From NCBI GenBank assembly GCA_963662465.1, contig OY759599.1, forward strand, positions 2,080,001 to 2,144,000: a stretch of DNA of 64,000 bases, in the 5' to 3' direction. The position numbers and the translations under genes are program-made. The DNA is from Desulfatiglandales bacterium. Lineage in GTDB: Bacteria > Desulfobacterota > DSM-4660 > Desulfatiglandales > Desulfatiglandaceae. Shown piece after piece: positions 47,476 to 49,513 of the stretch. Under the pieces are notes generated by a model, which did no database searches, was not told the DNA's origin, and saw only the letters and a program-made list of their open reading frames with translations. Within the stretch, counting starts at the first letter, position 1; each line of letters opens with the position of its first letter.

Positions 47476-48252
47476 ATGGATGAATTAAGGGCACTGAGAA
47501 ATGAAAATGCGCGATTGAAGCAGGAGCTTTCGGAAATAAAGAAAGAAAGCACTCAATATCTTCAAAATGTTGCTCATCAGCTTACAGCACCTCTCGGCGC
47601 GATAAAATGGAGCATTGAGGGCTTAAAAACAACTAAACCCGTTCCAATCGAAACAAGAAAAAGGCTTTTAAGTTCGGTCTATTCCCAAGCGACTATTCTT
47701 ATTCATTTGATCAAGAACTTTGCCCTAATGTCAAATCTGGAAGCAGATCATGAACTAGGACAATTTCGCGAACAGCCAGAGCCTGTAGATATGTTAAGGC
47801 TTTGCATAAACATGGTGAATGACTTCAAACCACAGGCAGTGGATTCCGACAAGAGTATCAAAGTAGAAGATGGATCATTTTTTGTTTACAGAAAGAGGCG
47901 TTTGAAAATAGTAAAAAACCTGATTGCTCAGGCCATATCAAACATCCTCGAAAATGCCGTGAAGTATGCTGACAAGGATTCTGATATAATTGTTAGTGCC
48001 GTGAATGAAGAAGATTGGGTGGGCCTCAGCATTACGAGTCAAGGCATACCAATTGGCGAGAAAGAGTCCAATCATGTTTTTGAGCGCAACTTCAGGGGGG
48101 AAGCAGCTCGTCAAGAAGTTCCAGCCGGGACGGGTATTGGATTGTACTTGGTTAATAGTATAATTAAAATCCATAATGGCAAAATTAAATTACTTCTCAA
48201 TAATAGAGTTGCTACATTCATTCTATTATTTCCTGAGGGAGATTTGGAATGA
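47476..48252 (+). CDS. Soluble histidine kinase (short coiled coil + HisKA + HATPase, no sensor domain)
   Basis: NVAHQLTAPL H-box, NILENAVKY N-box, VFERNFRG F-box, GTGIGL G2; AGGAG RBS. Confidence 0.9.
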   Translation: MDELRALRNENARLKQELSEIKKESTQYLQNVAHQLTAPLGAIKWSIEGLKTTKPVPIETRKRLLSSVYSQATILIHLIKNFALMSNLEADHELGQFREQPEPVDMLRLCINMVNDFKPQAVDSDKSIKVEDGSFFVYRKRRLKIVKNLIAQAISNILENAVKYADKDSDIIVSAVNEEDWVGLSITSQGIPIGEKESNHVFERNFRGEAARQEVPAGTGIGLYLVNSIIKIHNGKIKLLLNNRVATFILLFPEGDLE

Positions 48253-48665
48253 AAAGAACAAAGGATATTGCATTATTTGTTGATGATGAACCTTATCTGC
48301 AACAGGCTTTATTTGCTGTCTTGGATGCCGATGGCATCAGCTGTGTTTCAACATCGAATGTATCTGAAGCAATGGCTTATTTAGAACAAAATAGTGAAGT
48401 CTCTATAATAGTAACAGATATAATGATGCCACCTGGCGAAAGATATGAACATGTTGATTCATCAGGTGCAGGGTTCTTTTTTGTTGATGAAGTGCTAAGA
48501 ACATTTCCCGAAATTCCCATAATCTGCTTGTCAGTGATAGGAGATCAAAGAAAAATAAACCAATTGAAAAGAAAGGGTGTACTTTATCTTAGGAAGGGTG
48601 AAACACCGCTGGATACAGCTATTAATCTAATAAAATCAAAAATACGAGGTTTTGTAAGTTTTTGA
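48249..48665 (+). CDS. Single-domain response regulator
   Basis: FVDDE, VTDIMMP (phospho-Asp), ICLS and YLRK; ATGA overlap with the kinase gene. Confidence 0.9.
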   Translation: MKRTKDIALFVDDEPYLQQALFAVLDADGISCVSTSNVSEAMAYLEQNSEVSIIVTDIMMPPGERYEHVDSSGAGFFFVDEVLRTFPEIPIICLSVIGDQRKINQLKRKGVLYLRKGETPLDTAINLIKSKIRGFVSF

Positions 48666-48673
48666 GGTAACAA

Positions 48674-49513
48674 ATGAGAAAGGTTCTAGTAGTTGAAGAT
48701 GATTCTTTTTATTGCAGACGGTTGAAAGAAATTGTCATTGATAACGGCTTAGAATGTGTTGTAGCTTCAAGTCTTAACGATGCATTGAAAATTAATTTTG
48801 AAAACATTGATGCAGCAATTGTAGATGTGATGCTACCAAATAGTCCAGAACAAACTGGTATTTCATTAGAGGAAACAAGAGGAAACTTCCTGTCGGGCAT
48901 AGCTCTATGTCGTAAAATTCACAAAATGCATCAGGATTTTCCTATAATTTTAATTTCAGCAGATATTGCCGGTAATGAGGCAAGAACTTGGGCGAAAATG
49001 CGAAATATTCTTTTTGTTTGTAAGACTGAAGGGCCAGAACGTATAGTAAACGGGCTAAGAACTTTTGGGCTTTTAGCTGAAGACACTCCTAGAGCTTTCA
49101 TTGTACACGGACATGATGAAAATGCTCTTTTAGAGCTAAAAAATTTTATTCAAAATTCTCTCAAATGGAAGGAACCTTTTATTCTCCGGGAACAGCCTAG
49201 CTCAGGTAAAACCATAATTGAAAAATTTGAAGAACAAACACCTACTATTGATTATGTTTTCGTTCTGTTAACGCCTGATGATACCGTGTTGAATTCTGAT
49301 GAATCAAACGATCAGAAAAGGAGAGCAAGACAAAATGTTATTTTTGAACTAGGCTTTTTTTATGGACACTTTGGGAGACAGTCTGGTCGGATCTTAGTGT
49401 TACACAAAGGGCTTGTTGAAATCCCTACAGACATATTAGGGATAATATGGATTGATATCTCAAATGGTGTTGATCCAGCAGGTGAAATTATAAGAAAAGA
49501 ATTGGCCTTATGA
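48674..49513 (+). CDS. Receiver domain fused to a Cap12/Pycsar-type TIR domain
   Basis: N-terminal VLVVEDD...IVDVMLP...ILISA...CK; C-terminal AFIVHGHD, EQP..GKTIIEKFE, VLLTPDD, RARQNVIFELGFF and EIPTD..G. Confidence 0.9.
   Translation: MRKVLVVEDDSFYCRRLKEIVIDNGLECVVASSLNDALKINFENIDAAIVDVMLPNSPEQTGISLEETRGNFLSGIALCRKIHKMHQDFPIILISADIAGNEARTWAKMRNILFVCKTEGPERIVNGLRTFGLLAEDTPRAFIVHGHDENALLELKNFIQNSLKWKEPFILREQPSSGKTIIEKFEEQTPTIDYVFVLLTPDDTVLNSDESNDQKRRARQNVIFELGFFYGHFGRQSGRILVLHKGLVEIPTDILGIIWIDISNGVDPAGEIIRKELAL

Follow-up and report, generated by a model that had tools for sequence, protein, structure and literature searches.

A 64,000-nucleotide stretch of the genome of a Desulfatiglandales bacterium (assembly GCA_963662465.1, contig OY759599.1, positions 2,080,001 to 2,144,000; the whole stretch is called the window here, and positions are counted from its first letter) contains a compact operon of three genes. 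They encode a histidine-kinase-like (HK) protein, a stand-alone response-regulator receiver (REC), and a second receiver fused to a TIR domain (REC-TIR). The module is conserved in many bacteria and is apparently undescribed; there is no Pfam, NCBIfam, or PADLOC system model for it. A role in defense is likely. We propose, with a probability that we would put at roughly 40%, that phosphotransfer from His to Asp controls a TIR NADase that serves abortive infection, with phosphorylation as the signal that turns the enzyme on. The new element is the phosphorelay-type control that the domain content predicts for a TIR effector.

Domain content of the three proteins

The HK gene (47476 to 48252, plus strand) encodes a sensor-less protein of 258 amino acids (aa) that matched the Pfam models HisKA with 27.4 bits (cut-off, 26.9) and HATPase_c with 59.7 bits. 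The gene for the free receiver (48249 to 48665, plus strand; 138 aa; Response_reg, 36.9 bits) overlaps the HK stop by 4 nucleotides (nt), and the REC-TIR gene (48674 to 49513, plus strand; 279 aa) follows after a gap of 8 nt. The REC-TIR protein matched Response_reg with 42.5 bits over residues 4 to 126 and CAP12-PCTIR_TIR with 112.6 bits over residues 141 to 263; the latter score, against a gathering cut-off of 24.7, places the TIR half in PF10137, the CAP12/Pycsar TIR family. The domain scan of the window covered open reading frames (ORFs) of at least 90 aa, with a 3395-aa nonribosomal peptide synthetase (NRPS) ORF and one spurious overlapping ORF left out. None of the scanned ORFs encoded a cyclase, STING, SAVED, or cyclic nucleotide monophosphate (cNMP)-binding domain, and SLOG, SIR2, and Macro domains were likewise found neither among them nor in the module.

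Both receivers carry the classical set of residues, namely, an acidic pair, a phospho-accepting Asp, a Ser/Thr, and a Lys. In the free receiver, D12, D13, D57, S95, and K116 were invariant across 12 aligned relatives, and an insertion follows the phospho-Asp. In an alignment of 26 relatives, the receiver of REC-TIR keeps E8, D9, D10, D51, Ser/Thr95 (Ser95 in the window protein), and K117, and here too a conserved insertion follows the phospho-Asp. The TIR half keeps FIVHGHD and RARQNVIFELG, and Glu225, which lies in the NVxFExG motif and which we take to be the catalytic Glu of TIR NADases, was invariant in 26 of 26 sequences. The stretch RQNVIFELGFF aligned with RDNVVFEFGLF of Cap12 TIR-STING (9lmq and 7un8) and with RDNVHLEFGIS of PycTIR (8jsj). 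An AlphaFold2 model of REC-TIR (mean predicted local distance difference test score, 83.6; predicted template modeling score, 0.57) was confident for the receiver and less so for the TIR domain. When this model was used as a Foldseek query, receiver-enzyme regulators (PleD, CheB, and others) were returned first, and TIR-STING (9lmq_B) was found at rank 29.

The HK protein starts with about 30 aa of coiled coil, followed by the H-box AHQLTAPL (His34, Gln35), and no sensor domain is present. Its catalytic and ATP-binding domain has an N box, an atypical G1 box, TSQG, in which Ser188 occupies the Asp position, and the G2 box GTGIGL. The classical features of HisKA kinases are thus represented by a phospho-acceptor His in the dimerization and histidine phosphotransfer domain and by the N and G2 boxes. 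In an alignment of 16 relatives, His34 was at least 90% conserved, and N156, N160, and G218-T-G-x-G-L were invariant. The best relatives in the PDB were structures of the cytoplasmic portion of HK853, with which the family profile aligned end to end (E value, 2e-34). All 16 aligned relatives are about 255 to 294 aa long, with about 30 aa of coiled coil before the H-box in each. In loci where REC-TIR precedes the kinase gene, HK begins about 40 to 80 nt past the REC-TIR stop, so that no upstream sensor domain can hide there. With short proteins throughout and no room upstream, the possibility that the HK protein is the truncated form of a longer sensor kinase in its relatives is ruled out.

An earlier note on this DNA had described three plus-strand ORFs at the coordinates given above: a sensor-less cytoplasmic kinase with an HQ-type H-box and a TSQG G1 box, a free receiver with intact DD/D/S/K residues, and an intact receiver fused to a Cap12/Pycsar-type TIR domain that retains FIVHGHD, RARQNVIFELG, and its Glu. 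It had also stated that the window lacks cyclase, STING, SAVED, and cNMP-binding domains. The first set of claims was borne out in every part, the unusual kinase boxes proving to be family-wide traits, and the last holds for the scanned ORFs.

Conservation, distribution, and variants of the module

Relatives were collected as 80 loci kept from an alignment-based metagenome scan plus 1 from a genome collection, the only true relative that a single-sequence scan of genome contigs gave. A full-length REC-TIR gene was present in 53 loci. The window order, HK-REC-RECTIR, was seen in 13 of these and the order RECTIR-HK-REC in 15, while 5 had HK at a contig end, 1 had the free REC at a contig end, and 19, mostly on short contigs, had neither. 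One more trio of the second order (L032) has a truncated REC-TIR and stands outside the 53. Of the 16 loci that extend 1300 nt or more to each side, 12 had the full trio, as did all 11 relatives that share 46% identity or more and have 1250 nt or more upstream. Throughout the 28 complete trios, the free receiver comes directly after HK, and REC-TIR stands either before or after this pair. The trio is a conserved three-gene unit, as had been suggested from the window, and it occurs in two gene orders.

A profile search yielded 788 cluster representatives at E values of 1e-30 or below. Among the best 150 of these, 110 were full-length REC-TIR proteins, 26 had the TIR domain only, and 14 were partial; the source names of relatives include Terriglobales, Planctomycetes, Dormibacteraeota, and Pyrinomonadaceae. 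In 22 of 23 TIR-only relatives from metagenomes, the N-terminal region was without a Pfam domain. Of the 401 genomes sampled in the window's phylum, 1, the window's own, had full-length REC-TIR, and of the 401 sampled in the phylum of another locus (L001), 2 had it, the seed genome included. In the window's genus, REC-TIR was found in 1 of 11 genomes. The GC content is 0.37 to 0.38 over 47 to 50 kb, compared with 0.50 to 0.59 in the flanks, which agrees with the earlier description of the operon as AT-rich. By gene, the values are 0.40 for HK, 0.35 for the free receiver, and 0.36 for REC-TIR, against 0.50 for brxA and 0.56 for brxC nearby. The rare, patchy distribution and the low GC content mark the module as accessory and, by all appearances, horizontally acquired.

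Other relatives place the REC-TIR unit in different company. Longer proteins have the architectures REC-REC-TIR (P0187 and P0208) and HPr-REC-TIR (P0195), and one of 719 aa (P0209) combines an NB-ARC STAND NTPase, a winged helix, a receiver, and a CAP12-type TIR domain, an architecture resembling that of nucleotide-binding leucine-rich repeat receptors with REC-TIR as the effector end. An HPr-like gene lies directly downstream of REC-TIR in L023 (141 to 1333) and in the viral contig L120 (5992 to 7256), and no kinase is present in these two cases or in P0195. The canonical phospho-His motif of HPr is GLHARPA, and its His is kept in the three HPr-like sequences, which read GIHARPS, GMHGRPC, and RMHGSPC. 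Viral contigs contributed 60 loci with this TIR clade, and a receiver was found only in L120. That contig (827 to 8129) encodes a phage lysozyme, a Mu F-like head protein, and a cargo block consisting of an HSDR_N-like protein, a Dam methylase, a DpnII endonuclease, an N6/N4 methylase, an unknown 235-aa protein, REC-TIR, and the HPr-like protein.

Because an HPr-like protein stands in for the kinase, adjacent or fused, in some relatives, a putative phospho-His donor beside REC-TIR is a common theme, and the donor module appears to be exchangeable. It is a real, if tentative, possibility that REC-TIR is a portable effector cassette, providing a hitherto unrecognized His-to-Asp trigger of TIR NADase immunity that dispenses with a nucleotide messenger and accepts interchangeable donors. 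These donors would be the sensor-less atypical kinase with its sink receiver, the HPr-like phosphocarrier, or the fused STAND NTPase.

Proposed mechanism

The trio may be a self-contained phospho-signaling module whose output would be an enzyme and not a transcription factor. In the mechanism that we propose, the kinase-like protein would form phospho-His34 upon an intracellular infection cue, and the phosphoryl group would pass from His34 to Asp51 of the REC-TIR receiver. The phosphorylated receiver would self-associate, active TIR sites would be assembled, and NAD+ would be cleaved; the infected cell, depleted of NAD+, would stop growing or die, which amounts to abortive infection. The translationally coupled free receiver would compete for the phospho-His, as a phosphate sink or a kinase modulator, and would set a threshold above which alone the TIR fires. 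For this TIR family, Asp phosphorylation would in effect replace the triggering cyclic nucleotide of the cyclic oligonucleotide-based antiphage signaling system (CBASS) and of the pyrimidine cyclase system for antiphage resistance (Pycsar). A prediction of a complex of two REC-TIR copies scored 0.32, against a mark of 0.42, and bears neither way on self-association.

The switch might also run in the opposite direction, which we consider unlikely. Constitutive phosphorylation by the sensor-less kinase would then keep REC-TIR inactive, and loss of phosphate caused by infection would fire the TIR; infection would drain ATP or phosphoenolpyruvate (PEP), or would block or destroy the kinase, and the free receiver would speed the phosphate drain. 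Guard-type wiring of this sort is in line with the finding that none of the 16 aligned relatives of the kinase has an input domain, as would suit a default-on enzyme, and with the free receiver going invariably with the kinase, not with REC-TIR. HPr phosphorylation in the phosphotransferase system depends on PEP, and with the HPr-like alternative partner, the phospho-state would report how much energy the cell has. However, phosphorylation usually promotes association and activation in characterized receivers, and TIR-STING is activated by ligand-induced assembly; both speak against a switch that is held off by phosphate.

Weighing the proposed mechanism

Several observations weigh against phospho-activation of a TIR NADase in infected cells, and those on the kinase-like protein concern the very first step. 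The family has HQLxAPL where HK853 has HELRTPL, so that Gln stands at H+1 where a Glu/Asp general base would be. The H+4 residue is Ala, with the Thr/Asn phosphatase residue lost family-wide, and the adenine-binding Asp of the G1 box is replaced by Ser or Asn across the family (S/N-x-G versus DNG). Because the canonical H+1 Glu and G1 Asp are absent, autokinase activity cannot be assumed, and the HK protein may not phosphorylate itself with ATP. These two atypical elements, the H-box and the G1 box, are therefore the main caution about the start of the phosphotransfer chain.

The same three family-wide losses would fit a kinase-like protein that is a Spo0B-like phosphotransferase or a dedicated phosphatase and not an autokinase, an explanation that partly overlaps the others and that we regard as quite improbable. 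As a phosphotransferase, it would relay phosphoryl groups via His34 to REC-TIR from the free receiver, which a host kinase or acetyl phosphate would charge. The set of a receiver, a His-protein, and a receiver-output protein does match the established Spo0F-Spo0B-Spo0A layout, and HPr-like proteins, which are pure phosphocarriers, replace HK and the free receiver in some relatives. As a phosphatase, the Gln35-bearing protein would keep both receivers unphosphorylated until it was inhibited. Neither role sits well with the invariance of N156, N160, and G218-T-G-x-G-L, which argues for retained nucleotide binding, or with the end-to-end alignment of the profile with HK853, an active kinase.

The genetic setting provides further points against a phospho-activated defense enzyme. 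Of the 16 loci with enough flanking sequence to each side, 4 lacked the canonical trio. In L021, REC-TIR is accompanied by a divergent 257-aa kinase and by no free receiver; L035 and L036 have no kinase; and L073 (4 to 5109) contains a divergent module in which a kinase, a DDE_5 insertion sequence transposase, a receiver, and REC-TIR are followed by a 658-aa protein with a receiver and a domain of the winged helix-turn-helix (wHTH) type. The genes after REC-TIR in L035, L026, L058, and G536 (L180) gave no match to the kinase or free-receiver profiles, and those in L035, L026, and L180 gave none to the HPr-like proteins. In addition, the top 119 relatives share 52 to 73% identity across several phyla, which is high for a defense gene.

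The earlier note had envisaged enrichment of the module beside defense genes, and this was not seen in our sample. PADLOC models were matched at E values of 1e-8 or below in 6 of 20 module loci and in 9 of 20 controls; at 100 bits or more, the counts were 4 of 20 and 2 of 20. The comparison drew on 121 ORFs flanking the module loci and 114 ORFs from arbitrary stretches of other genomes, called by a greedy choice of the longest ORFs with a minimum of 80 aa, and its power is limited by the small sample, the short flanks, and generic hidden Markov model matches. The matches in the controls were mostly to generic kinase, helicase, and protease models. Fourteen of the 20 loci lie among metabolic or signaling genes. 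Matches to Brx or Pgl proteins were found in 0 of the 20 related loci, which makes the bacteriophage exclusion (BREX) system next to the window operon a local feature of this genome; the suggestion that the kinase senses BREX inhibition accordingly lacks support.

A number of individual loci do have neighbors of the defense type. We counted in favor of a defense role the window module itself, which has BREX as its neighbor and Fic, HipA, PIN, and IS200 genes in the surrounding stretch; the phage contig L120, in which REC-TIR and the HPr-like gene stand directly behind a DpnII restriction-modification system; and the STAND-NTPase fusion P0209. In L054 (3848 to 7339), REC-TIR-HK-REC has a regulator pair, CapH (helix-turn-helix [HTH]) and CapP (M78 peptidase), directly upstream in the same orientation, and a type I methylase, ThiF/E2 (E1/E2) genes, and a NucC-like nuclease are also near. 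AbiEi/AbiEii and an integrase are found near the module in L029, a TIR protein with a transmembrane segment directly upstream of it in L030, and a PDC-S37/Hhe helicase-nuclease nearby in L011.

These surroundings bear on a further explanation, which we think fairly unlikely, that the module is a mobile two-component pathway without an immune role. Its TIR domain would lower NAD+ or make an NAD-derived signal, and the result would be dormancy or another response to an intracellular cue. The 14 of 20 loci without a defense-type neighbor would fit this explanation, as would a PADLOC rate as high in controls as in module loci, the high conservation across phyla, and the signaling-gene contexts of L009 (FHA, HD-GYP, STAS, and GGDEF) and L010 (a LuxR-type regulator). 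It is harder to reconcile with a very sparse, patchy distribution in a low-GC islet, with one module directly behind restriction-modification genes on a phage contig and another directly behind CapH/CapP, and with the existence of the STAND-NTPase fusion. No receptor for a TIR product (SLOG, SAVED, STING, or Macro) was found among the scanned window ORFs or in the conserved module, and the characterized members of PF10137 are, as the Pfam family name reflects, all defense effectors.

Comparison with known systems

The closest relatives of the TIR half in known defense systems are alike in part only. Cap12 TIR-STING of CBASS and PycTIR of Pycsar belong to the same PF10137 family, their NVxFExG Glu aligns with Glu225, and in them, as in REC-TIR, a regulatory domain at the N or C terminus controls the TIR. 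Unlike theirs, the regulatory domain here is a phospho-accepting receiver and not a cyclic-nucleotide binder, and a protein would deliver the trigger, a phosphoryl group. No cGAS/DncV-like nucleotidyltransferase (CD-NTase) or pyrimidine cyclase was found in the scanned window ORFs or in related loci. The components of CBASS (CD-NTase, STING, or SAVED) were absent from the scanned window ORFs and from the flanks of the 20 related loci, and the NCBIfam Cap12 models gave REC-TIR 35 and 29 bits, with a cut-off of 450. The module has neither the cyclase nor the cNMP-binding domain of Pycsar, and the SLOG, SIR2, or Macro partner of Thoeris is missing from the module and the scanned window ORFs. Linkage to BREX, as expected of a BREX accessory gene, was found in 0 of 20 related loci.

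The module had not been catalogued in the collections that we consulted. None of the three proteins scored up to the cut-off of an NCBIfam model, and the PADLOC matches were confined to the TIR half (PDC-S35) and, as a generic similarity, the HATPase domain (PDC-M43B). The PDC-S35 match (E value, 1.5e-43) joins residues 137 to 267 of the protein to positions 117 to 241 of a 264-position profile. The N-terminal third of the PDC-S35 profiles is unmatched by the receiver, so that the match is not full length, and PDC-S35 is a single-gene defense candidate without a kinase or a free receiver. PDC-M43B was rejected as an identity for the HK protein, since the match, which covers only residues 150 to 242, reflects generic HATPase similarity and an unrelated control kinase matched the same model.

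In the layout of its phosphotransfer proteins, the module resembles branched two-component pathways. In CheA-CheY-CheB, DivJ/PleC-DivK-PleD, and Spo0F-Spo0B-Spo0A, one His-protein serves both a single-domain receiver and a receiver-output fusion, and the single-domain receiver acts as a sink, an allosteric modulator, or a relay. The window module likewise has a His-protein, a free receiver, and a receiver-enzyme, and PleD and CheB were the top Foldseek matches. It differs from those pathways in its TIR output, its sensor-less kinase with an atypical H-box and G1 box, and its location in a mobile accessory islet.

We found no description of an HK, REC, and REC-TIR module in the full-text literature, subscription papers and preprint supplements being outside reach, and the same holds for the accessible parts of PMC9503650, PMC7159879, PMC8195603, and PMC7824862. 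Papers of the Aravind group, in the portions available, treat receivers as HK-independent effectors in conflict systems and do not mention this module. As far as the available part of the preprint shows, the nearest precedent is Ambrosia (bioRxiv 10.1101/2025.09.30.679545), an experimentally supported anti-phage system with a HATPase kinase and a REC protein in which the phospho-Asp is required. According to the same part of that source, Ambrosia is a five-gene set whose receiver carries a wHTH domain, with proposed transcription control of restriction-modification-like genes. In the module described here, by contrast, the receiver is fused to an effector enzyme, and there is no DNA-binding or restriction-modification component.

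Genomic surroundings in the window

The operon diverges, across a 983-bp gap, from a complete type 1 BREX system on the minus strand (brxA-brxB-brxC-pglX-MNT/HEPN pair-pglZ-brxL; 32770 to 46493), which is context and lies outside the module; this is the divergent arrangement claimed at the outset. The MNT/HEPN genes, a pair of the toxin-antitoxin type, lie inside the BREX operon between pglZ and pglX (37160 to 38022, minus strand).

The islet is bounded by two copies of a 53-nt direct repeat, which are 85% identical and have no further occurrence in the 8.16-Mb genome. Copy 1 (46784 to 46836, plus strand) marks the left edge, 640 nt upstream of the HK start, and copy 2 (49956 to 50008, plus strand) marks the right edge. 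Both contain the sigma-70-like sequence TTGACA-18 nt-TATTCT and are among the five best promoter-like sites of the region (10/12), and copy 1 is likely the promoter of the operon. Copy 2 lies in an intergenic element of about 150 nt (49856 to 50005); together with the preceding 100 nt, it shares 94% identity with an intergenic element of a same-genus genome. Related elements in two same-genus genomes (L118, 5985 to 6134, and L119, 6227 to 6333) lie upstream of unrelated plus-strand genes, which encode a PAS hybrid kinase and a beta-helix protein. We read the repeat as a promoter-type element that is native here, with one of its copies now driving an imported operon. We also considered the repeats as att sites of an integrative element and dropped this reading, because the islet has no integrase and the copy 2 element is native in same-genus genomes, where it stands upstream of unrelated genes. 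No Rfam family matched within 46300 to 50400.

Two small ORFs lie near the repeats. One (47224 to 47373, plus strand; 49 aa from its ATG) has a strong Shine-Dalgarno sequence and is located between copy 1 and HK; the other (50011 to 50265; 84 aa) comes after copy 2, and homologues that are about 90% identical at the nucleotide level occur elsewhere in the genus. Farther to the right are a beta-lactamase-fold gene (50344 to 51603) and, beyond it, the 3395-aa NRPS ORF (52308 to 62495, minus strand), which was read from its translation. On the other side of BREX, the region from 15285 to 32207 contains toxin-type and mobile genes, namely, Fic/DOC with DUF4172 (15285 to 16406), HipA (18344 to 19582), PIN (24103 to 24540), an HTH_3 protein (30806 to 31114), and an IS200-type Y1 transposase (31854 to 32207). 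The window also encodes two paralogous 7TMR-DISM hybrid histidine kinases with two receivers each (12311 to 14971, minus strand, and 27498 to 30467, plus strand).

Implications

TIR NADases are central effectors in bacterial, plant, and animal immunity. In bacteria, the triggers known for them are of two kinds, namely, small nucleotides and assembly directly on a sensor. A question raised by the atypical motifs of the kinase and by the HPr-like donor is whether the cue is a phage factor or the energy state of the cell, and the compact three-gene system offers clear targets for point mutants in His34, Asp51/Asp57, and Glu225. If REC-TIR is indeed a portable cassette, some versions would tie abortive infection to the ATP/PEP phosphorylation state of the cell. 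If the proposed mechanism is true, a two-component phosphorelay that directly gates a TIR domain would be a new control principle, and the largest bacterial signaling family would enter the control of immune effectors.

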